From contig CADATZ010000006.1 in assembly GCA_902791025.1 (NCBI GenBank), positions 2,303 through 66,302 of the forward strand: 64,000 nucleotides of DNA, in the 5' to 3' direction. Under the pieces are notes generated by a model, which saw nothing but the letters and a program-made list of their open reading frames with translations, made no database searches and was not told the DNA's origin. Positions within the stretch are counted from its first letter, which is position 1, and each line of letters begins with the position of its first letter. The translations under genes and the position numbers were made by a program. This DNA comes from an uncultured Chloroflexota bacterium. Its GTDB lineage: Bacteria > Chloroflexota > Anaerolineae > Anaerolineales > Anaerolineaceae. Shown piece after piece: positions 3,801-54,436 of the stretch.

Positions 3801-3894
3801 ATTCTAAAATTTTGCGGAGCACATGGCGACAGGCACGCTTGTTCGGGCTGCGCCGCACGAGGTGCCAGTCCCCACGTGCTCCGTACTGAATAAT
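3801..3894 (+). repeat. Intergenic palindromic element (IPE) copy A
   Basis: gagcacatggcgacaggcacgcttgttcgggctgcgccgcacgaggtgccagtccccacgtgctccgtactgaata. Lies between the opp SBP and the first permease gene. Confidence 0.9.
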
Positions 3895-3906
3895 CAGAAT
3901 GAATGA

Positions 3907-3931
3907 CCGGCGGGTCTTTGAGGCCCGCCGG
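3907..3931. terminator. GC-rich hairpin (ccggcggg-tctttgagg-cccgccgg) downstream of the opp SBP gene
   Basis: 8-bp perfect stem. T-rich runs lie on both sides. Could attenuate between the SBP and permease genes. Confidence 0.5.
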
Positions 3932-3959
3932 ATCTTTTTAAAGGTTCAAAGAATTCAGA

Positions 3960-5519
3960 TTAGAGTTCAACATAAGCGCGGGCCCAGAAGTGGTTGCCGC
4001 CGCCGGCGAACAGGATGCCCGCATCATCATAGGAATCGGAAACGACAAGACCCTTATTGTAGGCAATGACGAGATCCGGAACATAGAGCGGGACCTGATA
4101 GACGGTCTCTGCCATGTAATTCTGGTAGTCATAGCTGTACTGCAGACGTTTGTCCTGATCCATCTCGGTGAGGACCTTGTCGGCAAGATCGTCGACGACC
4201 GGGTCGCTCAGCTGTGCATAGTTGGTGGGGAAGCCGGTGTAGAACAGTTCGCGGTAGGTTTCATCCACGCGGGCACCGATGTTCCAGCGCCACAGGAACA
4301 TCTGCTGATGGCCGGCTGCGCATTCGGATTTCAGGGTGGCCTGATCCATGGATTTGATGTCGACATTGATGCCGATTTCCTTCAGGTTGGCCTGGATGAT
4401 CGGGGCGATGGTCTTGTAAGGATCGTCGGTCGGGGTGAAGAGTTCAACGGTCAGTTCACCGGGTTTGTAACCGGATTCTTCCAGGAGAGACTTCGCGCGT
4501 TCTACGTCATAAGTGTAACCGCCCTCGATCTGGTCGTTGTCAAGGAAGGACCAGGCACCGCGGTTCAGGACAGAAGTCTGCCATTTGCCGAGATCGTCAA
4601 GAACGATGGCGATGATGGTTTCTTTGTCAACAGCAGCGGAAACTGCCTGGCGGAGTTTCTGGTTGGTGAATGGTTCTTTCGCGACGTTGAAGCCGAGATA
4701 GAACAGTCTGGTACCGGCCTGGGTGTGGACGACTACGTTTTCATCTTCTTCCAGGAAGCGAAGGTCAGTCACTGGGGGATCAACACAGACGTCGATTTCG
4801 CCGTTCTGCAGGGCGATGGCACGCTGGGAAGCTTCAAGCAAGAACTTGAAGGTGATTTCTTTCGCGTAGCTGGGGCGGGCTTCTTTGTTCCAGTAGTCTT
4901 CATTCATGGAGAAGGTCACATATTGGCCCTCCTGCCATTCCTTGAAGATGTACGGGCCGGAACCGACAAGCCACGGTTCGGCGTTGTTCGCGTCTTCATA
5001 AGCAGCCTTGGACTGGATAGCCAGCGGATAGGAACCGAAGTTGTAGATCAGTTCATTGCTGTAGGCAGAGGTGGTAACCTGAACGGTGTAGTCGTCAATC
5101 TTGCTGACGTCGGTGACAAGACCCAGCTGACCAGAAACCTTGGAAAGAGTCGGGTCATCGCTGCGGGCGCGGTTGAGTGTGAAGACAACATCGTCAGCAG
5201 TCAGCGGAGTGCCGTTATTGAATTTCACATTCGGGTTCAGATGGAACACCAGGTGAGTTTCGTCAGTCCATTCCCAGGATTCAGCGATTTCAGGATAAAT
5301 CTCATATCCATGTCCATTATCCAGGAACACCAGACGTTCATGTGTCAGAGCGAAACAGTTGTTATTGATCTGGTCATTCTGCATCATCGGGTTCAGCTCG
5401 TTGATTTCCTGAGCGACACCAATAACGAGATCGTCCTTGATCCCTTCAGCGAGAACGCCGGAGAAACCGAAGGTCGCTGCCATGATGACAGCAAGCAACG
5501 CAAAAAAGACTTTCTTCAT
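3960..5519 (-). CDS. Peptide/nickel ABC substrate-binding protein, family 5 (OppA/DppA-like), secreted
   Basis: 519 aa. N-terminal signal peptide MKKVFFALLAVIMAATFGFSGVLA. Family-5 SBP motifs (LVFHLNPNVKFNNGTPLTADDVVFT). GGAGG upstream. Confidence 0.85.
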   Translation of the reverse strand: MKKVFFALLAVIMAATFGFSGVLAEGIKDDLVIGVAQEINELNPMMQNDQINNNCFALTHERLVFLDNGHGYEIYPEIAESWEWTDETHLVFHLNPNVKFNNGTPLTADDVVFTLNRARSDDPTLSKVSGQLGLVTDVSKIDDYTVQVTTSAYSNELIYNFGSYPLAIQSKAAYEDANNAEPWLVGSGPYIFKEWQEGQYVTFSMNEDYWNKEARPSYAKEITFKFLLEASQRAIALQNGEIDVCVDPPVTDLRFLEEDENVVVHTQAGTRLFYLGFNVAKEPFTNQKLRQAVSAAVDKETIIAIVLDDLGKWQTSVLNRGAWSFLDNDQIEGGYTYDVERAKSLLEESGYKPGELTVELFTPTDDPYKTIAPIIQANLKEIGINVDIKSMDQATLKSECAAGHQQMFLWRWNIGARVDETYRELFYTGFPTNYAQLSDPVVDDLADKVLTEMDQDKRLQYSYDYQNYMAETVYQVPLYVPDLVIAYNKGLVVSDSYDDAGILFAGGGNHFWARAYVEL

Positions 5520-5617
5520 GTACTACCTCCATTAATTTTGCAGATGCATCATCAACAAAAGATGCACCGTGTTTGATTAATAGATTTTAACAGAAATTGT
5601 GCCTTTTGTAAAGAAAC

Positions 5618-5665
5618 TTCGAGGCCTGTTTTTTGAAAATATTCGAGGCCTGTTTTTTGAAAATA
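5618..5665. repeat. Perfect 24-bp tandem duplication (ttcgaggcctgttttttgaaaata x2)
   Basis: Two identical adjacent copies in the divergent spacer between the opp SBP gene and the phosphodiesterase-like gene. Confidence 0.95.
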
Positions 5666-5690
5666 TACAGAAAACCGCAGGGGGAAAGAT

Positions 5691-5699
5691 TGGTATAAT
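5691..5699 (+). promoter_or_regulatory. Extended -10 promoter element (TGGTATAAT)
   Basis: TGnTATAAT lies about 32 nt upstream of ATG 5731. No good -35. Confidence 0.45.
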
Positions 5700-5730
5700 T
5701 CTTACAGATATCTGTTATAGGAGGCTGAAG

Positions 5731-6591
5731 ATGATATTCAACTCGATCCCGATCACGAGACTGGCCGCATCGCTTGCTGCTGCCATGGACGTTCCGGCAC
5801 CAGAACAGGCAGAAGAACCGCTTCCTTTGATCGAAACATTAGTGAAGGATCACTGCAGATCCGATAAAGCGGAAAAGATGCTGCTCTTTTGTCCGGATGC
5901 GATTGGACAGTGGCTGGTCCAGAAATATACCATGGATTTCGCGCCTGTCCTGCGTTATACACAGCTTCAAATTCCCTTTGTCTCCGCGTTTCCTCCCGTG
6001 ACTCCCGTTAATTTTGCGTCAATATTTACAGGCGCTCAGCCGAATGTGCATGAGATCCGGCGCTATGAAAAGAAACTTGTAACGATCGATACGCTTTTTG
6101 ATGCATTTGCCCGGGCTGGAAAGAAAACAGCATTGGTTGCTATCAAAGATTCCAGTATGGGTACGATATTTGCCGGAAGGAATATTGATTATTATATTGA
6201 GCCGGACGATCCGAATGACATAGATGGTGCCGCAACAACGCTGAAGGCTCTGGAATTGCTGGAAAAACGAAAACCGGATTATGACGTGATCGTAGTCTAT
6301 ACCATGAAATATGATGACAGCATCCATGCCACTCATCCCGAATCTGCAAAATCGCTGCACGCGATGAAATCACACAACCTGCAGTTTGAGATGCTTGCCC
6401 GGAAAACCGCGGAGGTTTGGGCGGGATATGATACATTCCTCGGCTATATCACCGATCATGGCATTCATGCGGACCATCATTCTAATGACGGTATCCTCAA
6501 AGACAGGGACGGACGGGGCAACCATTATGCCGATATTCCGGAAGATATGAATGTGACACACTTTTTTGGGATCCAACCGGCTGAGAAATGA
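5731..6591 (+). CDS. Alkaline-phosphatase-superfamily metalloenzyme (type I phosphodiesterase/nucleotide pyrophosphatase-like)
   Basis: Start chosen at ATG 5731 behind AGGAGG. Candidate Thr nucleophile in FPPVTPVNFASIFTG and a distal DHG.H motif. The family call is tentative. Confidence 0.5.
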   Translation: MIFNSIPITRLAASLAAAMDVPAPEQAEEPLPLIETLVKDHCRSDKAEKMLLFCPDAIGQWLVQKYTMDFAPVLRYTQLQIPFVSAFPPVTPVNFASIFTGAQPNVHEIRRYEKKLVTIDTLFDAFARAGKKTALVAIKDSSMGTIFAGRNIDYYIEPDDPNDIDGAATTLKALELLEKRKPDYDVIVVYTMKYDDSIHATHPESAKSLHAMKSHNLQFEMLARKTAEVWAGYDTFLGYITDHGIHADHHSNDGILKDRDGRGNHYADIPEDMNVTHFFGIQPAEK

Positions 6592-6609
6592 TCATTGCAT
6601 GGGAAATGA

Positions 6610-6708
6610 ATTATTCAAGGACTTGAGTGACGCACATGAGGACAGGCACACCAGTGTCGGCTTCGCGACACAGGGTGCCAGTCCCCATGTGCTCTGTTGT
6701 TATTGATT
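6610..6708 (+). repeat. IPE copy B (central stem subfamily 2)
   Basis: gcacatgaggacaggcaca..gtgtcggcttcgcgacac..gtgccagtccccatgtgc. Lies 3' of the phosphodiesterase-like gene. Confidence 0.85.
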
Positions 6709-6860
6709 CAATTTTTATTTTATGGTAAGACCAGAAAATATCAATTCATTAAAATCATATAAAAAAATTCCGCCTTTGTCAAAGGTGAATTGTCCTGTTT
6801 TTGAGAATATATGTCATTTAATCTGACTGACATTTCCGGTCATTTTTTTGAAATATGGCC

Positions 6861-6889
6861 TTGAAGCGGAGCTAATTCTATGCTAAAAT
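6861..6889 (+). promoter_or_regulatory. Sigma-70-type promoter of tRNA-Ser
   Basis: TTGAAG, 17-nt spacer, TGcTAAAAT (extended -10). The tRNA starts 11 nt downstream. Confidence 0.65.
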
Positions 6890-6899
6890 AGAAAAGTTC

Positions 6900-6984
6900 G
6901 GAGAGATGGCCGAGTGGTTTAAGGCGCCTGTCTTGAAAACAGGTGTGGGGCAACTCACCGTGGGTTCGAATCCCTCTCTCTCCG
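6900..6984 (+). tRNA. tRNA-Ser (anticodon UGA)
   Basis: GGAGAGA acceptor pairs with TCTCTCC. Anticodon loop is CTTGAAA. Long variable arm and GGTTCGAAT T-loop are present. CCA is not encoded. Promoter lies upstream and terminator downstream. Confidence 0.9.
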
Positions 6985-6991
6985 CTGATTT

Positions 6992-7028
6992 GGAACGGTT
7001 AATTTCTGGAATTACCGTTCCTTTTTTG
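6992..7028 (+). terminator. Rho-independent terminator of tRNA-Ser
   Basis: ggaacggttaatt-tctgg-aattaccgttcc followed by TTTTTT. Confidence 0.85.
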
Positions 7029-7086
7029 TTAATACTGCTATGATAAATTTTAGTTTAGTACCGAGTTAAAGTGATCATTTTTGCTA

Positions 7087-7185
7087 TCTATTCGGGGCGG
7101 AGCACTTGGGGACTGGCATCTTGTGTCGCGAAGCCAACACAAGCGTGCCTGTTCCCCATGTGCGTCGCTGTGAGTTCTGAACAGA
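7087..7185 (-). repeat. IPE copy C (subfamily 2)
   Basis: tctattcggggcggagcacttggggactggcatcttgtgtcgcgaagccaacacaagcgtgcctgttccccatgtgcgtcgctgtgagttctgaacag. Confidence 0.9.
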
Positions 7186-7210
7186 TACCTTATAGTTCTG
7201 TTTATTTTGC

Positions 7211-7993
7211 TTATTCTCCAAACTCGGAATGGAACTCACGTTTTTCGTCGAAAGAGGAAGTTCTTTCGATTTCGATCTCGCCAAAGTTCGTGTCCTGGCG
7301 GACGGTTACGGCGTTTTGTTTGATCAGCTCCAGCATGGCGAGAAAAGTCACGACAGTCTCATTTTTGTTCCAGGTTTTCAGCAGACTGGAAAAACGGATG
7401 GCAGCGGCTTTCCGGATGCGGTTCACAAGGAGTTTGATCTTATCGTGAATGCTGAGACGTGGTTTTTTCATCACCGTTTCTAAAGCTTTCGCTTTTTTGG
7501 GAGGAGTAAAGACCCTGGCGGCGATGCGTGCGAGCATCTGCCCGTTCCAGCCGGAAATGTCCAGTGCCGGTTCGATCCCGATATCCGGAACGCTGGTCCG
7601 CAGCCAGGCATGGAGCCGGCGGTCTTCCCGTTCTGCAAGGGAATCCGAGAGCATTTTGAATCGCCGGTAGGTGATGAGCTGTTGTGCAAGGGCTTCCCCG
7701 CTGTCTTCATCAACATCGGCGATATTGACCTTTTGCTTTGGCAGGAGTGCAGCGGATTTGATCTGGATCAGTCGGGCGGCAATGACGACGAAGGCTGAAA
7801 CCTCTGTCGGGTTTTCCTCCTGCATTGCCCGCACATATTCCAGAAACTGGTCGGTCACCTGTGCCAGAGAAAGCACGGTGATGTCCAATTCCGCTTTTTC
7901 AATCAGGTCCAGCAGCAGGTCCAGCGGTCCCTGATAAAGGTCGGTTTCGATGCGGTATTGACCGGAGTGAAAGAATACGGGCTGCACTGCCAT
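7211..7993 (-). CDS. scpA: Segregation and condensation protein A
   Basis: 260 aa. The N-terminal YQGPLDLLLDLIEKAELDITVLSLAQVTDQFLEY is characteristic of ScpA kleisin. Confidence 0.85.
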   Translation of the reverse strand: MAVQPVFFHSGQYRIETDLYQGPLDLLLDLIEKAELDITVLSLAQVTDQFLEYVRAMQEENPTEVSAFVVIAARLIQIKSAALLPKQKVNIADVDEDSGEALAQQLITYRRFKMLSDSLAEREDRRLHAWLRTSVPDIGIEPALDISGWNGQMLARIAARVFTPPKKAKALETVMKKPRLSIHDKIKLLVNRIRKAAAIRFSSLLKTWNKNETVVTFLAMLELIKQNAVTVRQDTNFGEIEIERTSSFDEKREFHSEFGE

Positions 7994-8057
7994 GGGTATT
8001 ATTATAACAGGTGTCGCGGGGAAGGAAGTAGGATACAGGATACAGGAACACTATACC

Positions 8058-10265
8058 CTAACTGCTAATATCAAACGATGGCGTAAAGGTGCTGCTTCCG
8101 TTCATCTTATAATAACCGCGGAAGATACGGGCCATTGCCGTTTTGACGCCTTCTTCATCAGTACCAACCAGGATAATAAGAAACTGCCGTCGGTTGTACC
8201 GTGTAATTACGTCAACATTCCGAATCGTCTGACGGATGGATTGTTCCATAAAATACATCGCTTTTTCCAGTTCATCCTCGTGGAATAATTCGCCCGGGTT
8301 CTCCTCCAATGTGATCATGACCAGTTTGAACGGATGATCAAAACGCTTTTCCAGATTTTCGATAAAATCATAAAGGTTTGAAAACTGTCTGTACTCCACG
8401 TCCAGAGCGCCATCATAATTTCCGTTTTTCCGTATCACATCGACCAGTTTATTAATATTTGCCCGATCATTCAAGCCCGATTCAGAATCCTTGTCATAAA
8501 AACAGAAGCCATTTTTGCCGTTTTTTTTGACGTGATATAGCGCTTTATCTGCCATGCTGTAAGCTTTGTTGTAAGTATCTTCGGGTGTACACATCACCAT
8601 TCCCGCGGAAAGTGATGCAGACCCGATCTCGGGATCCCTGTTTTTCTTTTCATCAAAATCGTGAATAATTTTCTGAACGTGGGATTCGGACTCTTCCTTC
8701 GAACAATTTTTAATGAAGAAAAGGAATTCATCTCCGCCGAGCCTGCAGGACAGGCAGCCATCCCCGTTTTTGATGAGACATTCACCCATGAGTTTGAGAA
8801 CCTTGTCACCGGCGTTATGCCCGTGCGTATCATTGATCTTTTTGAGATTGTCTACGTCAAAGAAAACGAAACAGCCGCTTTCTTCCTTCATGGCTTGTGC
8901 GATGGCTGATTCTCCGGCACTTCGGCTCATCACACCGGTGATGATATCGATCCCATCCATCGTAACCTGAGTGGTAAAGGCTTTCATGACCTCCTGCAGC
9001 AGCACAGATGAGGTCTCCAGATCGCCCCTGTTTTGTTCTTTGTGTTCATCTTTGGCGATCTCATCCAGGAGACCGCGATCCCATAAATCGATAAAAATAC
9101 GAACTAATTCAGGATCGAATTGTGTCCCCGCACCGTTTTCCATTTCATTACGAATACGTTTCCGATCACAGGCTTTCCGATAGATACGGTTGGAATTCAT
9201 GGCGTCAAATGCATCTGCAATGGCAACGATCCTGGCTTCTTCAGATATTTCTGTCCCCCGCAGTCCCTGAGGATATCCGCTTCCGTCATACCGTTCATGA
9301 TGACTGAGCGCAACATTCTCCGCTGTTTCAATCATGACCTTTTCTTTGAGGATTTCCGCGCCCATAGTAGTATGAGATTTGATGATGTCAAATTCCACAT
9401 CAGACAACCGTCTTGGTTTGTTGAGGATCGAATCGGGAACGCCGATCTTGCCGATATCATGAAGCATGGCAGCATAGCGAAGGTCGCTGATCTTTTCTTT
9501 ACTCCATCTCAGCTTTTCCGCGATCCTTGCCGAATAGAGGCTGACCCGTGTCGAATGGCCTCTGGTGTAGGGATCCTTTGCATCGATTGCGTTTGCGAGC
9601 GCCTGAATGGTCTGAAAGGACATCTGCTCAATTTTTCGGCTTCTTTCTTCCGCTACCGCGGTCTGTCTTGCGACTTCCTCGTTCAGCCGGTCGGTATAAT
9701 CAATTTCAAGCAGGGAGCTCCGATGATAGTGAATCATAGCGATTGCTGTGAAAATCGACAGACTGGCGTAGAGAATCGGGAAGCGGGTAAGAAAATCCGG
9801 TGTATACCAGACAGCCATACGAGCCTTAAGCGGCGTATAAAACAGGATCGCGTACAATACTGTATAGTAAAATGACAGGATAATGCCGTATTTTACACTG
9901 ACAAAATAACTGATACCGATCGGAAGCAGAAGCGACCAGAGAATCGCCGTACCTTTTGCTGCAGCGGTCAAGGCATAATAGGTGAAGGCAACTGCACAGA
10001 ATACAGTCGGTATCAGTATCGCTTTTTCGCGGTCTTTCTGAACCCCCGCTATATATGCGCAGCTGACACCGCCAAGAAAGGTGACCAATGCAGGAATCAG
10101 CATGGATTTCAGATCTGAGGTCAGGTCCATGATGATCAGAACCAATCCGAGGAGAGCGGTAAAAATACTGACAGCAGTCAGCGCCTTCAGGTTTTGTTCC
10201 CTCCGTTCACCGACATAGATTGAACGATTTAAATCATTCCATACAGCTTTTAATTTATCCGGCAT
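8058..10265 (-). CDS. Membrane c-di-GMP protein: multi-TM N-terminus + HD-GYP phosphodiesterase + GGDEF + degenerate GGDEF-like domain
   Basis: HDIGK and HHERYDGSGYPQGL (HD-GYP), RLGGDEFLFF (GGDEF), and a C-terminal RYNRRQFLIIL segment in a GGDEF-like context. Start chosen at MPDKLK (ATG 10263-10265). Confidence 0.8.
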   Translation of the reverse strand: MPDKLKAVWNDLNRSIYVGERREQNLKALTAVSIFTALLGLVLIIMDLTSDLKSMLIPALVTFLGGVSCAYIAGVQKDREKAILIPTVFCAVAFTYYALTAAAKGTAILWSLLLPIGISYFVSVKYGIILSFYYTVLYAILFYTPLKARMAVWYTPDFLTRFPILYASLSIFTAIAMIHYHRSSLLEIDYTDRLNEEVARQTAVAEERSRKIEQMSFQTIQALANAIDAKDPYTRGHSTRVSLYSARIAEKLRWSKEKISDLRYAAMLHDIGKIGVPDSILNKPRRLSDVEFDIIKSHTTMGAEILKEKVMIETAENVALSHHERYDGSGYPQGLRGTEISEEARIVAIADAFDAMNSNRIYRKACDRKRIRNEMENGAGTQFDPELVRIFIDLWDRGLLDEIAKDEHKEQNRGDLETSSVLLQEVMKAFTTQVTMDGIDIITGVMSRSAGESAIAQAMKEESGCFVFFDVDNLKKINDTHGHNAGDKVLKLMGECLIKNGDGCLSCRLGGDEFLFFIKNCSKEESESHVQKIIHDFDEKKNRDPEIGSASLSAGMVMCTPEDTYNKAYSMADKALYHVKKNGKNGFCFYDKDSESGLNDRANINKLVDVIRKNGNYDGALDVEYRQFSNLYDFIENLEKRFDHPFKLVMITLEENPGELFHEDELEKAMYFMEQSIRQTIRNVDVITRYNRRQFLIILVGTDEEGVKTAMARIFRGYYKMNGSSTFTPSFDISS

Positions 10266-10293
10266 ACCTTTAAATCCTATCCCACAAACTCCC

Positions 10294-10630
10294 TTACCAG
10301 CATCTTCTTCTGCAAATACAACTCTTTTTCGTATTGATATCAGAATAATAGTCAAATTTCTCTGCTCCGGTCTGGCTTGAGACATAGCGCCGCTCATCAT
10401 TTTTTTTCATGAAATCATCCCAAATCCGGGCACTGACTGCCAAAACCAGTTCTGCTTTCGTATTGTAATGACGGTAAAGTGTCGCGATCCCGATCGAGCA
10501 GGCGTTTGCAATTTCATTCATGGTGACCGCTTCAATCCCCTTTTTCCGGCAAAACCGGAAATGGGGCATTCATTATTTTCCGCTGACAAAAATCCCGTTC
10601 TCTCAGGTCCCGTTTCGGGTTACTGTCCAT
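10294..10630 (-). pseudogene. TetR/AcrR-family regulator remnant (frameshifted N-terminus, truncated C-terminus)
   Basis: The HTH segment GIEAVTMNEIANACSIGIATLYRHY is intact. The N-terminal MDSNPKRDLRE sits in another frame with stops between. The ORF ends after about 90 aa and runs into the next gene. Confidence 0.5.
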
Positions 10631-10783
10631 TTTTCACTCTCTTATTTACTAATGATATTGATTATATCAATTGTGTAATGCACTGTCAATAGTAATTTTC
10701 CTGTCCTGATTATTGACCTTTATCTGCTAATATCTTAGAGCCGCTTCTTCCATGGAACGCAGCTTCAGCTTGAGCCAATGGTA

Positions 10784-10908
10784 CTATTCAGGATGAAGCA
10801 CTCGGGAACTGGCATTCAATCTGCTCAGAGCGGTACGAGCTTCGCTCGATATGATTCAGAGCAAAAGCTTTGCCTGTCCCCATGTGCGCCGCCGCAGGTT
10901 CTGAATAG
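10784..10908 (-). repeat. IPE copy D, long variant with alternative ~55-bp central module
   Basis: Canonical ends (ctattcaggatgaagcactcgggaactggca ... gcctgtccccatgtgcgccgccgcaggttctgaatag). The centre is replaced by ctgctcagagcggtacgagcttcgctcgat..., which is related to 44141-44250. Confidence 0.8.
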
Positions 10909-11539
10909 ATACATATGGAGAATGAAATTACTGACGAAATTGCCAAATGCAAGTCCTTAACGATGCCCTATCCTCTGCCGAATCCGGTTATTGTATGACA
11001 TTTTGTGGGATTATTTCCCCGCAAAATCAAAAATGACCTTGATATGGGGGAGTATTTCAGGATGTAGGATGTAGGGGGGATGAATTAGAAGTAAACTGTT
11101 CCGGTGATGCGGGCTGGCAGGAGTGAAGAGCATGGAATATAGGATTTGAGAGGAGACAACCGCTTTGCTGTAAAAGTTTCTTTGTGTGGATATGATGGCT
11201 ATGTAAAGATAAACAGCGGCAGATCGTTGCCGAACTGCCGCCGAAAGGAGGAGCATGAAAAAAACATCCAATTTATTTTAATCAATATTACCATTGTTTT
11301 TTTCTTAACAAGAGTTCTTTTTTAAATTCATGATTAATAAATTTTAAGAAGACGATTCTCCTGAATGAATTCTTGCTGATTCCTATGACAAATGTCATAT
11401 TCTTAATGAATTTTAATTTTAATACCTTCTCAAATCTTAAAAATATGGTATATTATTGAATAAGGTAATCTTTGGAGAGAGAGCAACCGTACAGAGGATT
11501 CATGGCCACGCACAAATGCCATGAATTTCTCTTTTTAAT

Positions 11540-11634
11540 CAGACATTAGACGTTAGGACGCACATGGGGACTGGCACTCTTGTTCGGGCTGCGCCGCACA
11601 AGATGCCAGTCCCCACGTGCTCCGTCCTGAATAG
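11540..11634 (+). repeat. IPE copy E
   Basis: gacgcacatggggactggcactcttgttcgggctgcgccgcacaagatgccagtccccacgtgctccgtcctgaatag. Confidence 0.9.
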
Positions 11635-11647
11635 GCTCAACCTTGAG

Positions 11648-11668
11648 ATTTTAGGATTTAGGCATCAG
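11648..11668. repeat. Heptamer array (3 units, attttag/gatttag/gcatcag); inverted partner of 11741-11817
   Basis: Period 7. The units are reverse complements of the ctaaaNN/ctgatgN units about 75 bp downstream. Confidence 0.45.
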
Positions 11669-11740
11669 GTACGGGCTGCAATGCAGAGGCATAGAACCAT
11701 ATATTAGAAAAAAAAGAAAAGCAAAAATCGCTTTCCTTTT

Positions 11741-11817
11741 TCTAAAGTCTAAAGTCTGATGTCTGATGTCTAATGTCTAATGTCTAACTTCCAACTTCTA
11801 ACTCCTGACTTCTAAAG
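11741..11817. repeat. Heptamer array, 11 units (tctaaag x2, tctgatg x2, tctaatg x2, tctaact, tccaact, tctaact, cctgact, tctaaag)
   Basis: Exact period 7. 10 of 11 units contain TAA or TGA. The stop and the last ~6 codons of the ABC ATPase gene lie inside the array. Confidence 0.9.
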
Positions 11818-13423
11818 CTCCTGTCCCGATGATCTTGCCGCTCTTGCGGTGGAAGAGGATGATGCTGTCGGATATGAAGTCCATGTTTACATAGGAGCCG
11901 ATGGTGAAAATTGTATTGCCGAACACCACACCGGTCAGAAGAAATTCACCCACACGGATCTTGACGGTCGATTCCATACCGGTCGGCATGGCACCGTAAA
12001 TTTCGCCTTCGATCTTCCCGCCGGAATGGATCGAGATGAATTCCGGGCGGACACCGATGACGAAATCCTCATCGGTCAAGATCGGTTCTTCCTGCATGGC
12101 GTCGTCTTCATCATTGACGCGTTGGATGTGGTATTTAAAGACCTCATCCTTGTTGTTCTTTTCCACATAATCCTTTGCTTTGGCACGTTCCCTCAGGTCA
12201 GCGGCATCTTTCTCGGTCTTTGCATTAAGGTCGGAGAGCCACTTTTTATAATCCGGGACATCCTTGCCGCTGAAGCGTACCTTTATCCCGTCAAGGATCG
12301 TCAGCTCAAATTCACCTTGTGCGTTCTGCGTTCCTTTTGCCTCAATGAAGTTGATGGAAGGGTTCCCGACAAAGTCCGCCACAAAGAGGTTGTTCGGGTG
12401 TCCGTAGACGGTGAGCGGGGGCTGATACTGCTGCAGCACACCGTTGTTGATGAGGCAGATGTTGGTGGAGAGCGTCATGGCTTCCATCTGGTCATGGGTC
12501 ACATAAACGAAAGTGGACCCGGTTTCCACATGCAGACGCTGCAGCTCATAGCGCATTTCCAGCCGCAGTTTTGCGTCCAGGTTGGAGAGCGGTTCATCCA
12601 TGAAGAGCACGGAAGGTTCCGGAGCCAGTGTACGGGCAATAGCAACACGCTGCTGCTGACCGCCGGAAAGTTCAGCCGGATAGCGGTCCATGAACATGGA
12701 GATCTTCACAATGCGGGAAACCCGGCGGACGGAGAGATCGATCTCTTCTTTCGTCAGCTTGCGGACCTCGCGGACAGTCTTGCCGCCTGAAGTGAATTCA
12801 TAATCCTTGTTCAGGTTATTGGCCTTGACAGCGGCCGCAGCCTTGTCTGCCAGGGCATTAGCTTCTCCCTTGAAGTCACCGCCGTTCTCAAGATGATAGC
12901 CGACCAGCTTTTTGGCGGTGAACTGGGAGATCGTAAAGGCGTCGATGAGCTTGATGACGGCTTTTTTCTCATTCAGTTTCCCGGATTTGTCTTTACATTC
13001 ATCCAAAACCTTTACAACATCCTGCGGATTGGAAAGGATCTCCGAGAGCCGCGCATTGTTCTTCGCCTCGAAATCTATCTTCGGCATTTCTTCTTTGATG
13101 TTGGAAAGACCGAAGGATATATTTTCATAAACGGTCATGTTCGGCCACAGCGCGTAGTTTTGGAACAGGAAGCCGACTTTCCGTTTGTTGGCAGGAATAT
13201 TGATCCCTTTCGAAGAATCAAAGACCACCCGGTCGCCGATAGTGATCTTCCCCGTGGTTGGGGTTTCAAGACCCGCGATCATACGCAGTGTGGTGGTCTT
13301 CCCACAGCCGGAAGGACCCAGCAGGGTCACGAACGCGTTATTGTCGATGACTAAGTTTAAATTATCAACGCCGTAAAAATTTCCCCAGCGTTTTGTAACA
13401 TTTTCCAATCTGATTTCGGGCAT
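11798..13423 (-). CDS. ABC importer ATP-binding protein (MalK/UgpC-like) with two large insertions
   Basis: GPSGCGKTT, LSGGQQQR and LFMDEPLSNLD motifs plus a TOBE-like C-terminus. It is 541 aa, against about 360-370 aa as I recall for this family. Confidence 0.85.
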   Translation of the reverse strand: MPEIRLENVTKRWGNFYGVDNLNLVIDNNAFVTLLGPSGCGKTTTLRMIAGLETPTTGKITIGDRVVFDSSKGINIPANKRKVGFLFQNYALWPNMTVYENISFGLSNIKEEMPKIDFEAKNNARLSEILSNPQDVVKVLDECKDKSGKLNEKKAVIKLIDAFTISQFTAKKLVGYHLENGGDFKGEANALADKAAAAVKANNLNKDYEFTSGGKTVREVRKLTKEEIDLSVRRVSRIVKISMFMDRYPAELSGGQQQRVAIARTLAPEPSVLFMDEPLSNLDAKLRLEMRYELQRLHVETGSTFVYVTHDQMEAMTLSTNICLINNGVLQQYQPPLTVYGHPNNLFVADFVGNPSINFIEAKGTQNAQGEFELTILDGIKVRFSGKDVPDYKKWLSDLNAKTEKDAADLRERAKAKDYVEKNNKDEVFKYHIQRVNDEDDAMQEEPILTDEDFVIGVRPEFISIHSGGKIEGEIYGAMPTGMESTVKIRVGEFLLTGVVFGNTIFTIGSYVNMDFISDSIILFHRKSGKIIGTGALEVRS

Positions 13424-13425
13424 GA

Positions 13426-15273: not shown

Positions 15274-15284
15274 CTCCTTTTTTT

Positions 15285-39289: not shown

Positions 39290-39297
39290 CGGCACAC

Positions 39298-43033: not shown

Positions 43034-43069
43034 TTACCAAAAAACAAACATATCAAAAGGAGATGTCGT

Positions 43070-43863: not shown

Positions 43864-44065
43864 GACCGACAGCAACACCACCATTCATTCTTAGGGGTTG
43901 GACCTTCACACTCCATTCCCGCCATCTTGCCGGTGGAAGAGCCTGTTGCATTTATTCATTCTTATCTGGAAAATCGGTGGTAGATTTGGTAATTTTTCAA
44001 ATGGGAAAAATGGATGATAACGATCGGGACTGTTCCTTCAAGGGACTGTCCCGGAAAAATCCCTT

Positions 44066-44218
44066 TTGAACGAAGTACGTGAATACGAAGCACATGGGGT
44101 CTGGCAACTTGTGCGGCGCAACCCGCACAAGCGTGCCTGCGAAAGATCCTGCTCCGTAAGGTATGAGCTGCGCTCGATTTAGATGCGGAGCAGGAGCTGC
44201 GCCCCCATGTGCGGCAAT
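44066..44218 (-). repeat. IPE copy M1, interrupted by a second palindromic module
   Basis: The left arm and centre are canonical (gcacatggggtctggcaacttgtgcggcgcaacccgcacaagcgtgcctg). A ~60-bp insert follows (cctgctccgtaaggtatgagctgcgctcgatttagatgcggagcagg) before cccccatgtgcgg. Confidence 0.75.
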
Positions 44219-44289
44219 GAATCGAGCGAAGCTCGCGCCTCGGAGCGGGGCTTGTATTGGCTTCGCGAGATATGGCGACGCGAATATGG

Positions 44290-44358
44290 CGACGCACATG
44301 GGGACAGGCACGCTTGTGTCGGCTTCGCGACACAAGATGCCAGACCCCACGTGCTCCG
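44290..44358 (+). repeat. IPE copy M2 (subfamily 2)
   Basis: gacgcacatggggacaggcacgcttgtgtcggcttcgcgacacaagatgccagaccccacgtgctccgg. Preceded by the tandem atatggcgacgcga/atatggcgacgca. Confidence 0.85.
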
Positions 44359-44427
44359 GGTATGGAAGCGGGTAAATGGCCCGGTGAGTCGTTCGTAAGG
44401 AAAAAGTTGCATAATATTAACATTTTT

Positions 44428-44553
44428 CTCCTAACTCCTGTCTCCTATCACCTAATTCCTAACCAACTTCTAACCAACCAACTACTAACTACTAACTACC
44501 AACTACTAATCAACTACTAACTACCAACCCCTAACCCCTAAGCCCTAACAAAC
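44428..44553. repeat. Heptamer array, 18 units with drifting flavour (ctcctaa -> actaact -> aacccct)
   Basis: One continuous period-7 phase by hand count. TAA occurs in most units. Lies upstream of the SBP_3/NBR1-like gene. Confidence 0.9.
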
Positions 44554-46555: not shown

Positions 46556-46586
46556 GAGCTGTCCGCGTGTGCTCTGTTCTGAATTA
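46556..46586 (+). repeat. IPE half-copy P (right arm and terminus)
   Basis: gagctgtccgcgtgtgctctgttctgaatta resembles gccagtccccacgtgctccgttctgaata. Confidence 0.4.
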
Positions 46587-46615
46587 ATACAAGACGAATT
46601 ATAAGGAAACGATTT

Positions 46616-50229: not shown

Positions 50230-52184
50230 CGCGTTTTTCGCTGATAACACAGTCCATCCGCGACCTTGGCCTTTTGCCTGTACTGCGCAATGGCTGCTAT
50301 CAGGTTTTGCTGAAAAGCGGGATCTACCGGACAATCATGCCTCACAGACCGCTCCGGAAGGAAACCGTGCGCGGGGAATTCCGTCCGCTGCCGCTGCCGG
50401 ATATGGAGCAGCTTGGCCCGTATCTCTCTGCTGATTCCGCCCGTATCTTTGAAGAAAAAGAACTGATTTCCCGCGGGGAATATCATCCCTTTGGCAGTAA
50501 AAAGAATCTGCCTTTGGATTTGAATCCGGTAAACGGGAGCCGTCATTGGGCAACGGATCACAAGATCCCGGTCCCGGATTTAAAATTGATCTGGGAAGGT
50601 GCCAGGTTCTGCTGGGTCGATGCCTTGGTGCGGAACGAAGCGCTGACTCGCAGCGGCTTATCTGAAGCCTGCTTTTGGGATAAACTGGAAGAATTCAATC
50701 AGAAGAATCCGGTCAATCTGGGCGAAAATTGGGAGTCTGCACAGGAAGTTGGTCTGCGGCTGATCAATATTGCTTTTGCCGCAAGCGTTTTTCTGCAGCT
50801 GCCCAAGAGTGACAGCATTTATTTTTCAACCGCAAGGCATAATGAATTGATCCGTGAACGCACCGATCTGGCTGCCCGAACTATCCAGGCCCATGCTAAG
50901 CGGATCCCGAAAACATTGATTTATGCCAAATCTCAGCGGAATAACCATTTACTCAGCGAGGCTGCTGCACTGATGACCGCCGCTGTTGTTCTGCCGGAAG
51001 CTAATGAAGCCGGCCGCTGGTGGCGGCTGGGCAGAGATAATTTCTTCAGCGGACTGGACGATCAGCTTGCGCCGAACGGTTGTTATATTCAGCACTCTGC
51101 CAATTACCACCGTCTGATGATTCAGCTTGTGGTATGGGTGGACCGGCTGCTGCGTATCAAGTGCGAGAGCTGGCCAAAGAAGCTTATCCCAAAACTGCGG
51201 AACTCGATCCGTTTTCTTTATGATTTCTGCGACCCGGTCAATGGAAAATGCAGCAATATCGGGCATAATGATGGCACACTGCTGTTTTGTTTCGGGAGTG
51301 AGTATGAGGATTACAGCCCTACGCTGCAGGCAGCCGGTCAAATCTTTTTGGGTCGGAAGCTGTTTGCGGATGGACCGCGGGATGAACTGGGTATTTGGCT
51401 GAACGTTGAGCGGCGTTACCTCTATCAGTCTGATGAGGAACAGGATGAGGCTTATAGCGGTCCGCTTTCCGTTGGGAAAGGGCGCATGAAGGCATTGATG
51501 CTTTCAGAGCCTTTCATCGGCAGACCAGCGCATGATGACCGTCTGCATCTGGATGTCTGGATCAATGGCGTCAATGAACTTTGCGACGCGGGAACCTACC
51601 GCTATTCTGATTTGGAAGGCTGGGATAACCGGCTCAAATACGCCGTGACGCATAATGTGATGACGGTTGACCATCAGGAGCCGATGAGGGATGCGGGGAA
51701 GTTCCTGTGGCTGGAACCGGATGAAGCGAAGGTTCTTTCCCGCAATGAGGCTTACATCAGCGCGGAGCATAACGGATTCCGTTCATTGAACCTCAAACAC
51801 CGCAGGACCGTTCGCCCGATCGGGAATGGTTTTTCAGTGGCGGATGATGTGATCCCGCTGGAAAAGGAAGCGGATACGGAACATGTTTACCGTTTTCACT
51901 GGCTGCTGCCGAATCAATCGTTTAAATACAAAAAGGGCATACTGGTCCTGGACCGGATCCGCATGGGATTCAGCAGCGATTTTTCTTTCAATCTGCGCAT
52001 CGTTCGGGCGGGATACTGCATATTTAACAGCGGTGAGGAGACTGGGGAAAAGGATTTCCGTGAGGATCAGCGCTGCGGATGGTATTCACCAACGTACAAT
52101 GAAAAGGAACCCGCACTTTCCATCATTGTCACCTGCAAGGGGCAGGCGCCGTTTCATTTCGATACGCTGATTACGAAATTGTAG
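50226..52184 (+). CDS. Heparinase II/III-like (alginate-lyase-fold) family protein
   Basis: 652 aa. NNHLLSEAAAL...HSANYHRLMIQ resembles the toroid N/H/Y catalytic region of this family. ATGA overlap with the upstream gene. Confidence 0.55.
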   Translation: MTRFSLITQSIRDLGLLPVLRNGCYQVLLKSGIYRTIMPHRPLRKETVRGEFRPLPLPDMEQLGPYLSADSARIFEEKELISRGEYHPFGSKKNLPLDLNPVNGSRHWATDHKIPVPDLKLIWEGARFCWVDALVRNEALTRSGLSEACFWDKLEEFNQKNPVNLGENWESAQEVGLRLINIAFAASVFLQLPKSDSIYFSTARHNELIRERTDLAARTIQAHAKRIPKTLIYAKSQRNNHLLSEAAALMTAAVVLPEANEAGRWWRLGRDNFFSGLDDQLAPNGCYIQHSANYHRLMIQLVVWVDRLLRIKCESWPKKLIPKLRNSIRFLYDFCDPVNGKCSNIGHNDGTLLFCFGSEYEDYSPTLQAAGQIFLGRKLFADGPRDELGIWLNVERRYLYQSDEEQDEAYSGPLSVGKGRMKALMLSEPFIGRPAHDDRLHLDVWINGVNELCDAGTYRYSDLEGWDNRLKYAVTHNVMTVDHQEPMRDAGKFLWLEPDEAKVLSRNEAYISAEHNGFRSLNLKHRRTVRPIGNGFSVADDVIPLEKEADTEHVYRFHWLLPNQSFKYKKGILVLDRIRMGFSSDFSFNLRIVRAGYCIFNSGEETGEKDFREDQRCGWYSPTYNEKEPALSIIVTCKGQAPFHFDTLITKL

Positions 52185-52223
52185 GTATTAGGTATTAGGT
52201 ATTAGGTTTTAGGGGATGGTGAT
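52182..52223. repeat. Heptamer array, 6 units (taggtat x3, taggttt, tagggga, tggtgat)
   Basis: The first TAG is the stop of the heparinase-like gene, and the array ends exactly at ATG 52224 of the GT4 gene. Five consecutive TAGs cover all three frames. Confidence 0.9.
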
Positions 52224-53429
52224 ATGCATATTTTGTTGATTCACCAGGCGTTTGTTACTACCGGGGAGGCCGGGGGAACGAGGCATATTGAGTTTTCCCG
52301 CCGACTGGCTGCACGGGGCCACCGGGTGACCATCATCACCAGTCCGGTCAGTTACCTGAGCGGGGAAAGCAGCCTTACCGGCCATTTTCTGTGGAAAAAA
52401 GAACAGTGGGCGGAAAATATTGAGATCCGTTATTGCTGGACGAGCTCCGGGATGCATAAGGGATTTGTTCCGCGCCTGCTGGCTTTCTTTTCCTTCATGT
52501 TTTCCTCGTTTTTCTGTGCGCTGAACGTGAAAGACGTGGATCTCGTCTGGGGAACTTCGCCAAATCTATTTCAGGGCTGGACGGCCTGGCTGAGCGCAAG
52601 GCTGAAGCGCAAGCCCTTCCTGCTGGAGATTCGGGATCTCTGGCCGGAGTTCGCTATTGCCATGGGTGCGCTGCGAAATCCGCTGCTCATCCGCATGTCG
52701 CAGTGGCTGGAGCGGTTCCTCTATAATCACGCGGACCGCATCATTGTGAATTCACCGGGGTTTATCCCATATATCCGTGATATTTGCGGAAAGACACCGA
52801 ATCTGGTTCCGAATGGCGCGGATGAGCGTATGTTTGAAGGTGCGGACGGAACTGCTTTCCGCGAAGAACATGGCCTGGGGGATGATTTCGTGGTTATGTA
52901 CAGCGGCGCGCACGGTCCGGCGAATGACCTGGAAACGGTGCTGAATGCGGCGGAGATACTGCGGGATCATGCCGGTATCCGCTTTGTTTTTGTGGGGAGC
53001 GGAAAGGATAAAGCCCGCCTTGAAACGATAAAGGCGGAAAAAAAGCTTGACAACGTGTTGTTTGTCCCGCCTGTCCCGAAGGACCGGATCGCTTCCGTGA
53101 TGGCGGCAGAGGATGCGGGTTTGGCGATCCTGAAAAAACTGGATATGTTCAAAACTACTTATCCAAACAAAGTCTTTGACATCATGGCTTGCGGTGATCC
53201 GGTGATTTGTCAGATCGATGGCGTGATCCGCGAGGTGGTTGAGGAAAATCAGGCGGGGATTTTTGTCGAACCGGGTGATGCTCAGGCGTTGGCTGATGCT
53301 GTGCTGCGTTTAGCAAAAGATCCTGAAGCCTGCCGGAAAATGGGCGAAAATGGCCGCAGGGCGATCATGGAGAAGTTCAATCGCGACAAAGCGGCGGAAC
53401 AGTTGGAAGAAATCTTTATTAAATTGTAA
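52224..53429 (+). CDS. Glycosyltransferase family 4 (WbuB-like)
   Basis: MHILLIHQAF...GEAGGTRHIEFSRRLAARGHRVTIIT N-terminus and a GT-B C-terminal E-x7-E-type region. Confidence 0.7.
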   Translation: MHILLIHQAFVTTGEAGGTRHIEFSRRLAARGHRVTIITSPVSYLSGESSLTGHFLWKKEQWAENIEIRYCWTSSGMHKGFVPRLLAFFSFMFSSFFCALNVKDVDLVWGTSPNLFQGWTAWLSARLKRKPFLLEIRDLWPEFAIAMGALRNPLLIRMSQWLERFLYNHADRIIVNSPGFIPYIRDICGKTPNLVPNGADERMFEGADGTAFREEHGLGDDFVVMYSGAHGPANDLETVLNAAEILRDHAGIRFVFVGSGKDKARLETIKAEKKLDNVLFVPPVPKDRIASVMAAEDAGLAILKKLDMFKTTYPNKVFDIMACGDPVICQIDGVIREVVEENQAGIFVEPGDAQALADAVLRLAKDPEACRKMGENGRRAIMEKFNRDKAAEQLEEIFIKL

Positions 53430-53433
53430 CTGA

Positions 53434-53527
53434 TCAGAACCCACAGCGACGCACATGGGGACAGGCACACTTGTGCGGGCTGCTCCGCACAAGATGCCAG
53501 TCCCCACGTGCTCCGTTCTGAATAGAT
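53434..53527 (+). repeat. IPE copy N (near-consensus)
   Basis: tcagaacccacagcgacgcacatggggacaggcacacttgtgcgggctgctccgcacaagatgccagtccccacgtgctccgttctgaatagat. Confidence 0.95.
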
Positions 53528-53536
53528 ACATTAAAT

Positions 53537-53564
53537 TAGTGAATAATGAATGGTGAATAGTGAA
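53537..53564. repeat. Heptamer array, 4 units (tagtgaa taatgaa tggtgaa tagtgaa)
   Basis: Lies 10 nt after IPE copy N and 15 nt before the DDAH start. Confidence 0.7.
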
Positions 53565-53578
53565 CAAAAGGGGGATTT

Positions 53579-54370
53579 ATGTGTCAGTATGAGAGAGCGA
53601 TCACACGTCCGCCGTGTGGAAAATTCGCGGATGGTTTGACCCATGGGAAACTGGGGAGACCTGATGTGGAGCTGGCCGTGCAGCAGCACAAGGCTTATGT
53701 GAAAGCTTTGCGCCGGTGTGGTGTAGAGGTGACAGTCCTTCATCCGGATAATGATTATCCGGATTCCTGTTTCACCGAAGATGAGGCGATCGTTACCGAT
53801 CGTATGGCTGTCATTCCTTCCTTCTGCCGTCCTTCCCGTCAGGGTGAGGAGGTCAGGACCCGTCCGATCATCGAAGCATTTTACAGCGGCCGGATCGAGG
53901 AGATCAAGGCTCCCGGTACACTGGAGGGCGGCGACATCTGCCGTGCCGGGAATCATTTCTTCGTTGGGATTTCTTCCCGGACGAATGAAGCCGGGGCGCA
54001 TCAATTCGCTGATATCGTAAAAAAATACGGGTTCACTGCCGCGTTCTGCGACATTCGGGAGATTGAGATCCTGCACCTGAGTACGGGAATGAGTTATATC
54101 GGGAACAATACCGTTGTCTGCTGTCCGGCTTTTCGTCATTTGCCCGCATATGACTCTTACCGCGTGATCGTTACGGATGAAAAGGAAGCGTACGCGGCAA
54201 ATTGCGTCCGGGTCAATAATAAGGTCATCATGCCGGAAGGGTTTCCGAAGCTTGAAAAGCAGCTGTTCAAAGCGGGATTTGACGTGATCACGACCCCGAT
54301 GAGCGAGATCGAAAAACAGGATGGCGGATTGAGCTGCCTTTCCATCAGGATCCCGAAGCGCTGCAAATGA
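53579..54370 (+). CDS. N(G),N(G)-dimethylarginine dimethylaminohydrolase-type amidinotransferase (DDAH family)
   Basis: Collinear with bacterial DDAH as I recall it: DGLT...LG.PD, YPDSCFTED, GTLEGGD, LHLSTG, YAANC, and catalytic DGGLSCLSIR. Confidence 0.8.
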   Translation: MCQYERAITRPPCGKFADGLTHGKLGRPDVELAVQQHKAYVKALRRCGVEVTVLHPDNDYPDSCFTEDEAIVTDRMAVIPSFCRPSRQGEEVRTRPIIEAFYSGRIEEIKAPGTLEGGDICRAGNHFFVGISSRTNEAGAHQFADIVKKYGFTAAFCDIREIEILHLSTGMSYIGNNTVVCCPAFRHLPAYDSYRVIVTDEKEAYAANCVRVNNKVIMPEGFPKLEKQLFKAGFDVITTPMSEIEKQDGGLSCLSIRIPKRCK

Positions 54371-54436
54371 TGCACATGGGGACAGGCACGCTTGTGTTGA
54401 TTTCGTGATACAAGATTCCAGTCTCCACGTGCTTAG
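54371..54436 (+). repeat. IPE copy O (termini missing, centre diverged)
   Basis: tgcacatggggacaggcacgcttgtgttgatttcgtgatacaagattccagtctccacgtgctt. Starts 1 nt after the DDAH stop. Confidence 0.75.

Follow-up and report, generated by a model that had tools for sequence, protein, structure and literature searches.

What kind of element is the GC-rich imperfect palindrome of about 100 bp that recurs between the genes of a 64,000-nucleotide stretch (hereafter the window) of contig CADATZ010000006.1 from an uncultured Chloroflexota bacterium? A first-pass annotation, made from the letters of the window, had described about 17 copies and had compared their ends with the terminal inverted repeats of miniature inverted-repeat transposable elements (MITEs). 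After the analysis described herein we conclude, with a probability of roughly 85%, that the repeats represent a previously undescribed MITE family, designated family A, of about 105 bp and moved in trans. Every defining feature of a MITE that could be examined is present: a short non-coding element, inverted-repeat ends, a target-site duplication (TSD) of fixed length, and dispersed copies that are polymorphic between genomes. Family A is thus a new family of a known element type and no new kind of system.

Identification of family A and its 8-bp target-site duplications

The repeat family is real and well above chance. Diagnostic strings are over-represented in the window, CTATTCAGAAC giving 7 matches at up to 1 mismatch (0.94 expected), CCCCAYGTGCTCCGT giving 15 at up to 2 mismatches (0.13 expected), and a further short diagnostic string giving 37 (15.4 expected). 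A repeat search of the window recovered families of 65-103 nt at the places where the first-pass annotation had put its copies, in agreement with both a profile hidden Markov model (HMM), built from 11 copies and searched by nhmmer, and a covariance model (CM), built from 58 copies and run with filters off. The profile search identified more than 50 further copies in other contigs, and for this reason a local duplication confined to the window was rejected as the origin of the family.

The complete copies, i.e., the 14 copies with both termini located, are 102-105 bp in length and non-coding. They begin with GTATC or GTAAC, finish with GATAC or GTTAC, and carry terminal inverted repeats of about 15-22 bp, 5'-GTATCTATTCAGAAC(GGAGCAC)... 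and ...(GTGCGTC)..GTTCTGAATAGATAC-3'. For the TSD test, the left and right flanks of these 14 copies were re-paired at random in 10,000 permutations. On average 4.79 of the 8 flanking positions agree, compared with 2.78 +/- 0.35 after permutation, and 0 of the 10,000 permutations reached the observed value. Among the lengths k=3-11 the highest z score was obtained for k=8 (5.8); it was 4.1 for k=7 and 1.6 for k=9. Perfect duplications were identified around the copy at window 53422-53534 (AATTTAAT-GTATC...GTTAC-AATTTAAT) and around a family-A copy at L053 (GAATTTTG on both sides) [note that loci outside the window are labelled L0xx, such as L013, L061 and L079, and that the termini were scanned across 85 loci]. 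The duplicated targets are AT-rich. The MITE-like reading of the first-pass annotation is supported by these 8-bp TSDs, which had escaped detection by eye.

At least two sibling families, B and C, share with family A the termini GTA(T/A)CT(A/G)TTCA(G/A)AAC..., contain different hairpin interiors and are also flanked by 8-bp TSDs, perfect in the case of the family-C element at L085 (ATATTATC) and matching at 7 of 8 positions for the family-B copy at L055 (CTTTCTAT / CTTTCTCT). Such a combination of shared ends, different interiors and a TSD of fixed length characterizes MITE families that are mobilized by a single transposase.

The presence or absence of the element between related genomes shows that it is mobile. 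The L061 locus is filled and the orthologous L013 is empty at the same site, the collinear flanks being 95% and 84% identical. The 14-kb L079 locus, 85-92% identical in nucleotide sequence to the window over about 11 kb, carries no copy. The window has five copies within this shared stretch (3791, 6603, 7079, 11531 and 15461), and at all three sites compared directly (3791, 11531 and 15461) L079 is without the element. No copy was found either in the regions of L080 (17.8 kb) that align to the window.

The 8-bp duplication points to a DDE transposase, which would be encoded elsewhere in the genome and would bind the termini of about 15-22 bp. Target cuts staggered by 8 bp would then leave the 8-bp duplication, and the same enzyme would serve families B and C. 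After insertion the AT-rich termini decay and the core stays near the consensus.

Host organism and spread of the family

A 208-kb scaffold from a cattle-rumen metagenome (ENA ERZ28614409) is 100% identical to the window, the window ScpA protein shares 85% identity with proteins that bear the name Flexilinea sp., and the repeat pattern recurs mainly in the metagenome-assembled genome (MAG) 'Anaerolineaceae bacterium RGIG1627' and in a Flexilinea MAG. Taken together, these similarities identify the host as an uncultured, Flexilinea-like rumen member of the Anaerolineaceae (Chloroflexota). A scan of genome collections for the 16-base core pattern gave mostly chance matches, the genuine ones being only those in RGIG1627, in the Flexilinea MAG and in one contig of a 'Prevotella' MAG. 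Other assemblies from this population match the window at 100% identity and so carry no information on polymorphism; two of them end inside MITE copies, at window 53466 and 54392, as expected for a high-copy repeat.

The elements of RGIG1627 are 80-94% identical to those of the window, compared with 74% identity for the syntenic coding DNA. The orthologous copies of L067 and L074 showed too few differences to contrast the divergence of core and flank. Since the distribution is patchy, the family being absent from L079 and present at high identity in RGIG1627, we infer that the expansion took place in this lineage once the L079 lineage, of about 90% identity, had branched off, and the same pattern suggests horizontal spread among co-resident rumen Anaerolineaceae. 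The family may therefore serve to mark recent horizontal transfer of mobile DNA between the uncultured Chloroflexota of the rumen.

Organization and predicted folding of the element

The interior of the element is a GC-rich imperfect hairpin of 66 nt, referred to as the core. On the forward strand the left half reads GTATCTATTCAGAAC-GGA-GCAC(G/A/T)TGGGGACTGGCA(T/C)CTTGTG(CGG/TCG), followed by the apex and right half, -CG(A/C)AGC-(CCG/CGA)CACAAG(C/T)GTGCCTGTCCCCATGTGC-GTCGCTGTGG-GTTCTGAATAGATAC, and the outer stem of the core is formed by GGGGAC...GTCCCC. The element has a polarity, as indicated by the strong separation of the two strands by the CM (122 against 47 bits at 53422-53534). A full copy is predicted to fold as one long stem: two consensus-like copies gave -57 to -64 kcal/mol on either strand, with z scores of -6.9 to -9.4 relative to shuffled sequences, and the diverged copy at 15461 gave about -40 kcal/mol with z of only -2.7 and -4.1.

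Base pairing was analyzed with the structure of the best copy placed on an alignment of 58 non-identical copies, taken from RGIG1627, metagenome contigs and the window itself. Pairing amounts to 90% in the core helix and to 56% in the outer wing (terminal) helix, where many ends have decayed; when the partners were slid by 1-3 columns, it dropped to 35-43%. Paired changes are concentrated at the apex. The two versions of the inner stem, recognized already by eye, were seen as paired changes at columns 50:61 (CG in 29 copies, UA in 22) and 51:60 (CG 26, GC 20, UA 5, GU 4), with a few paired changes at 44:67. The reproducible asymmetry of the two arms is near-invariant in the aligned copies and consists of a T.T mismatch and an internal loop of TC against GCG; in addition, G.T exceeds A.C in the core of the forward strand (111 vs 41). 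The first-pass annotation had further argued that the hairpin itself is under selection. This proposal is plausible rather than proven: the paired changes and the better conservation of the core than of the termini are in its favor, but founder effects in subfamilies, gene conversion, or repair of one arm from the other in palindromic DNA could yield the same pattern in the absence of functional selection.

The apex reads GCGNAGC on one strand only, a sequence known to form very stable DNA mini-hairpins (PMC13037366, PMC3201870). The same motif is located at the apices of family B, of family C (as GCGAAAGC) and of a nested module described below. Of the 97 occurrences of GCGNAGC/GCGNNAGC in the window, 19 lie inside elements, and since the motif is common across the genome, it was given little weight.

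Uneven decay of core and termini and alternative interpretations

Several observations weigh against the MITE interpretation. Of 57 copies with sufficient flank, only 14 keep both termini, 19 keep one and 24 none. The TSD is poor at some copies with termini (3/8 at 7079, 1/8 at L062), the core-only copies show no duplication signal (6.58 vs 6.37 +/- 0.12), and the divergence of the flanks keeps the L061/L013 pair from resolving a clean 8-bp duplication. Neither in the window nor in the 85 loci or the viral contigs was a transposase or autonomous element carrying these termini detected. Among the 58 aligned copies, the identity to the consensus is 0.88 for the core against 0.58 and 0.62 for the termini, a contrast inflated by ascertainment in that the copies outside the window were found with the core pattern, and the identity of the core is uncorrelated with that of the termini (r = -0.06).

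The contrast holds inside the window, where the copy at 39284 has 0.86 in the core against 0.40 and 0.33 in the wings and the copy at 44289 has 0.94 against 0.20. The left and right termini decay together (r = 0.48), and their identity forms a continuum from 0.9 down to background. No copy with good ends and a decayed A core was found, every solo end belonging to a sibling family. In typical MITEs the ends are the best-kept part. Here the ends are lost and the core is kept, the reverse of the usual pattern, indicating that something beyond neutral transposon decay acts on the core. Selection on the core, gene conversion that reaches the edges less often, and mutational bias or fast indel turnover of AT-rich sequence are all possible causes; the intergenic heptamer tracts (see below) are unalignable between the window and L079.

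These observations raise the question whether the 66-nt core is the real unit, REP/REPIN-like (REP, repetitive extragenic palindrome) and spread by a Y1 transposase (RAYT, IS200/IS605-type) or by template switching, the 105-bp form being one vehicle among others. Near-consensus cores without termini such as 44289-44357, the 24 core-only copies and their lack of duplication signal speak for it, as do partial tandem copies of the core arms in L045, L048 and L051, the presence of the same termini around other interiors, the GCGNAGC apex on a single strand, the polarity given to the hairpin by the T.T mismatch and the asymmetric internal loop, and the forward-strand excess of G.T over A.C. We nevertheless consider it quite unlikely, since the identity of the termini is continuous rather than divided into two classes and, together with the correlation between left and right, fits a gradual loss of termini. 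Single-strand transposons are usually strongly biased in orientation relative to replication, but the family-A copies lie 7 on the plus and 8 on the minus strand of a window in which GC skew is positive nearly throughout, as in one replichore. No GTAG or CGTC tag is located 5' of the stem, no RAYT or IS200/IS605 gene was identified among the window ORFs (open reading frames) scanned against Pfam, and GCGNAGC is too common to be telling. Assignment to REP or REPIN was rejected on the size of the core (66 nt), the lack of GTAG, the presence of CGTC only 3' of the stem, in GTGCGTCGC, and the 8-bp TSD at copies with termini. Orientation is also unbiased relative to transcription: as counted from Pfam-checked flanking genes in the window, 7 copies are forward, 5 reverse, 1 convergent, 1 divergent and 1 unclear, in line with the earlier statements that both orientations occur and that they bear no fixed relation to flanking transcription. 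This lack of bias argues against a single-strand (IS200/IS605 or RAYT) mechanism as well as against a strand-specific RNA gene, and fits a DNA parasite.

It is possible, and we hold it as a tentative alternative, that the core is a domesticated cis-element under selection and delivered by the transposon. It could act in RNA, as a hairpin that stops 3' exonucleases or serves as an RNase III cleavage site, or be a DNA or RNA site for a specific protein. The sequence of the core, and not just its pairing, is kept at about 88% where the termini are at background, the elements are more alike between genomes than is the coding DNA, paired changes affect three stem positions, and many copies lie directly past stop codons. 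One copy is located between the binding-protein and permease genes of an ABC operon, the classic place of mRNA-stabilising REP hairpins in enterobacterial ABC operons, and a relative has a different palindrome there. Both orientations are found, however, in co-directional gene pairs (7 forward, 5 reverse) despite mismatches that differ between the strands, the stem is followed by no T-tract and the terminator scan of 3000-17500 flags no copy, the closest relative is without the element at 3 of the 3 sites compared, and gene conversion or rapid indel turnover of the AT-rich flanks could mimic constraint. The idea that the repeats are multicopy genes for a free-standing structured small RNA would account for the very stable, conserved hairpin and for the one-strand excess of G.U over A.C. 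It is highly improbable in view of the density of about one copy per 4 kb in both orientations, the TSDs and terminal inverted repeats, the presence/absence polymorphism between relatives, the lack of an Rfam match either at the gathering threshold or with E relaxed to 10, and the lack of any promoter-like site that accompanies the copies consistently. Our preferred interpretation of family A is still a MITE moved in trans.

Three further candidates were rejected. An intrinsic terminator is excluded by the mixed AT-rich target that follows the stem in place of a T-tract and by a terminator scan (3000-17500) that flags no copy; an integron attC site by the location of the copies in both orientations (7:8) between housekeeping genes and not in same-orientation cassette arrays; and a CRISPR or tandem array by the dispersal of the copies in both orientations.

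Search for a partner transposase and for known families

The search for solo termini of a parent element in the window and the 85 loci gave sibling MITEs only. IS66-family elements are recorded with 8-bp direct repeats (PMC3281130), and their ends are inverted repeats of 20-35 bp beginning GTAAG or GTAAC (PMC12888890). Family A likewise makes 8-bp duplications and many of its copies here begin GTAAC or GTATC, but the resemblance of these ends to IS66 GTAAGCG/GTAACCG covers only 3-5 bases, the ends are dissimilar past the first 4-5 bases, and no tnpA, tnpB or tnpC was found here. An IS66-like partner is a doubtful lead. The IS6, ISL3, IS256 and IS1595 families also make 8-bp duplications.

The earlier statement that no transposase is encoded in the window is correct for classical transposases and needs one qualification. 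An ORF of 309 aa at 29807-30736 (plus), between ABC permease and alpha-amylase genes, gives a weak match to Pfam Transposase_31 (YhgA/Rpn-like), with a score of 24 bits against a cut-off of 21. It contains an in-frame 12-nt tandem repeat at 30528-30600, and a small ORF (30843-31007) lies nearby. No link was found between ORF 29807-30736 and the MITEs.

The repeat was also confirmed to belong to no known repeat or RNA family in the collections searched. Rfam at the gathering threshold identified only a tRNA in the whole window, and at E up to 10 one copy gave only generic-hairpin matches to miRNA precursors, with 14-19 bits against cut-offs of 72-90. Neither blastn of one copy against plasmids and phages nor pattern scans of viral contigs for terminus and core gave a match, and the literature on REP or MITE sequences in Anaerolineae/Chloroflexi and on the element strings contained nothing relevant.

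Copies of family A within the window

The census by CM gave 14 family-A copies with E values of at most 1e-11, and beyond these one degenerate copy and one 15-nt remnant; two family-B copies are also in the window. All lie within 3.8-54.5 kb and none beyond 54.5 kb, the CM finding none in the dcw cluster, as had been noted before. Among the 13 copies originally listed as full-length, those listed at 10784 (apex replaced) and 44066 (wingless, with a split core) are not intact. The two eroded or half copies at 20834 and 37108 correspond to the degenerate copy (20804-20909) and the remnant (37109-37123), but that at 46556 turned out to be a terminal fragment of family B, and that at 43823 a distinct 29-nt hairpin that recurs in other genomes. 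The second family-B copy, at 17182-17294 (minus), was missing from the original list. The copies are intergenic as claimed, except that several abut or overlap stop codons (39284, 53422, 54343 and 23654).

The copy at 3791-3902 (minus; CM 85.1 bits, E 4e-28) has partly decayed termini and is located in an opp-type operon, between a solute-binding-protein gene (3960-5519, minus) and a permease gene (2829-3764, minus), both identified by Pfam. In the corresponding intergene between the binding-protein and first permease genes, L079 carries an unrelated 84-nt palindrome (ATGTGACACTTTGCACCTGTTGAAAATTGTCACAT...) at its positions 10650-10735. The copy at 6603-6715 (minus; 96.5 bits), with weak termini, lies 14 nt past the stop of gene 5599-6591 (plus) and upstream of a tRNA gene (6900-6984), and the copy at 7079-7192 (plus; 104.1 bits), with both termini and no clear TSD (3/8), lies 20 nt downstream of scpA (7211-7993, minus). 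In the copy at 10778-10914 (plus; 47.5 bits, E 4e-14) the apex is swapped for an unrelated hairpin module of about 55 nt (10812-10866). This copy and an HD-GYP/GGDEF gene (8058-10400) are carried by a segment of about 3.2 kb, 8010-11207, that is absent from L079, L080, L081, L084 and L085, in all of which scpA directly adjoins the homologue of window 11207-11540. About 260 nt upstream of the HD-GYP/GGDEF gene is a perfect match to a sigma-70-type promoter (10661-10689, minus), with TTGACA, a 17-nt spacer, TATAAT and an upstream TG.

The copy at 11531-11643 (minus; 86.6 bits) has ACTGGCA in both arms and is located downstream of an ABC ATPase gene (11798-13423, minus). With both termini and a TSD of ATTCATTT / ATTCATAT (7/8), the copy at 15461-15573 (plus; 101.4 bits) is inserted into a heptamer-repeat tract. 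The element at 17182-17294 (CM 20.8 bits, E 3e-4), with related termini and a different interior (GCACACCTGGAAAGC...), was assigned to family B by comparison with the B copies of L055, L073 and L041. The degenerate family-A copy at 20804-20909 (minus) was detected by nhmmer with E 6e-8 (20834-20906) and by the CM with E 0.06, and lies between gene 20908-22989 (minus) and a short ORF (20407-20679, minus), which we take to be rpsO from its position beside pnp. Two copies flank the PadR-family gene as judged by Pfam: 23654-23766 (minus; 91 bits) lies between the PadR-family and CYTH genes, both on the minus strand, and overlaps the region of the PadR stop codon, and 24288-24399 (plus; 82.9 bits) lies in the divergent region between the PadR-family gene (minus) and a LacI-family gene (plus).

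The remnant at 37109-37123 (plus), with 1 mismatch to CCCCAYGTGCTCCGT, represents the left core boundary in the opposite-strand reading; it was reported by neither HMM nor CM and lies just past the stop of gene 36238-37089. The core-only copy at 39284-39394 (plus; 75.5 bits) has no recognisable termini and begins at the recQ stop codon. The copy at 42930-43041 (plus; 113.4 bits) is full-length and near the consensus (fold -58.8 kcal/mol, z -7.3), and lies 17 nt past the stop of a GGDEF gene with A-rich flanks that match at 5/8. At 44080-44210 (plus; nhmmer 44080-44139, CM 44067-44179) a family-A core without termini has its right arm interrupted by a nested ~57-nt hairpin module (~44140-44196), and the neighboring core-only copy at 44289-44357 (minus; 82 bits, covering model positions 21-89 only) has a near-consensus core. 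The family-B terminal fragment (GTATTAATTCAGAACAGAGCACACGCGGACAGC) at 46556-46590 (minus), upstream of obg, was detected by the solo-terminus search. The best full-length copy is 53422-53534 (minus; 122 bits, E 9e-42; fold -63.9 kcal/mol, z -8.3), which is flanked by the perfect TSD given above and includes within its terminus GTAAC the TAA stop of a glycosyltransferase gene (52224-53429). The copy at 54343-54455 (minus; 58.5 bits), with a diverged apex and no right terminus, lies between an amidinotransferase-like gene and mraZ.

Sibling families and other intergenic modules

Family B was identified at L055 (4361-4490), L041 (141-245), L073 (735-890), L082 (10793-10896) and L083 in addition to the two window sites, and family C at L085 (~1170-1270). 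The site just downstream of scpA is occupied by family A in the window, by family B in L082 and L083, and by family C in L085.

Nested in the cores of families A and B is a second, roughly 50-nt hairpin module (CTGCTCCGTAAGGTATGAGCTGCGCTCGATTTAGATGCGGAGCAG with its variants), located at window 10812-10866, ~44140-44196 and ~44205-44262 (reverse), at L030 (~1960-2015) and at L073 (~770-830). It replaces the apex in one copy and splits the right arm at an identical position in two. A 29-nt hairpin, GGGGACTGGACCCGGAGGGGCCTGTACCC, found at window 43829-43857, L023 (5937-), L042 (1273-) and L067 (9746-), shares the outer stem GGGGAC...GT(A/C)CCC with the A core and looks like a separate short module. 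The L014 locus, from the MAG labelled Prevotella sp. (56% GC), carries at 4024-4088 the outer stem of the A core (GCACATGGGGACTGGCAC...GTGCCTGTCCCCGTGTGC) with a different apex, within an ORF of 1422 aa; an insertion in the gene, a mis-binned contig or convergence are all possible. It is rather unlikely, in our estimate, that the core is one of several related hairpin modules of rumen Anaerolineaceae (the sibling interiors, the ~50-nt nested module and the 29-nt hairpin) that are selected at the sequence level, with the MITE as only one delivery vehicle. Such modules would move between genomes and carriers and might be sites for one DNA- or RNA-binding protein or determinants of mRNA ends.

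Many intergenic regions are filled with 7-nt tandem arrays (period 7 or 14), usually just upstream of ribosome-binding sites, with units such as ACTTCTA, TAGTGAA, TCTAATG and AACTACT. Arrays of this kind are located at 11741-11815, 15284-15357, 15435-15473, 22969-23071, 23637-23656, 27044-27138, 29669-29698, 44461-44549, 52182-52213 and 53537-53564, and several MITE copies are inserted in or beside them. L079 carries heptamer arrays at the same intergenic sites with different units, indicating that the arrays turn over fast. They recall the short tandemly repeated repetitive (STRR) heptamers of cyanobacteria.

Effects on the host genome and comparison with known elements

Now named and modelled, the repeat makes up about 3% of the intergenic-rich part of this genome. 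It breaks up assemblies of rumen Anaerolineaceae metagenomes, gives rise to spurious ORFs (e.g., 43962-44423) and alters gene ends, one stop codon being located within an element terminus; several copies begin 0-20 nt from a stop codon. Whichever way a copy is oriented, a transcript crossing it is predicted to form a stem of about -55 to -64 kcal/mol. On this folding model, secondary effects on the stability or processing of mRNA 3' ends are likely: a ~100-nt stem should hinder 3' exonucleases and might be a substrate of RNase III.

Among known elements, the Correia/NEMIS elements of Neisseria resemble family A as non-coding MITEs of about 100-150 bp with inverted-repeat ends, a long hairpin formed by the whole element, a TSD and no transposase of their own, and with intergenic copies (hundreds in Correia) in both orientations and often close to gene ends. 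Correia elements can supply stop codons and other signals to neighboring genes. They have no sequence similarity to family A, however, and duplicate TA and have 26-bp ends, in contrast to the 8-bp AT-rich duplication, the GTATC/GTAAC ends and the GC-rich 66-nt stem outliving the ends in family A. Binding of IHF and processing by RNase III have been shown for Correia.

The RUP elements of Streptococcus pneumoniae, Nezha of cyanobacteria and Chunjie of Geobacter are likewise about 100 bp in length and share their ends with a presumed parent insertion sequence (IS), without sequence similarity to family A. RUP and other IS-derived MITEs form subfamilies with different interiors and expand in lineage-specific bursts. 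The parent of RUP, IS630-Spn1, is known, but none was found for family A.

With REP, REPIN and BIME sequences family A shares a dense population of intergenic hairpins of about 100 nt (the size of a REPIN), palindromes that are imperfect and keep their mismatches, clustering in mosaics with further small modules, and placement between operon genes. REP units carry a GTAG or CGTC tag (PMC3733652), and they are 20-40 nt in length without target duplication, in contrast to the inverted-repeat ends and 8-bp TSD of family A. The persistent core is the unusual feature of family A in these comparisons and merits attention, as the loss of the ends with retention of the core offers a testable case of whether the hairpins of bacterial MITEs are domesticated or merely homogenised.

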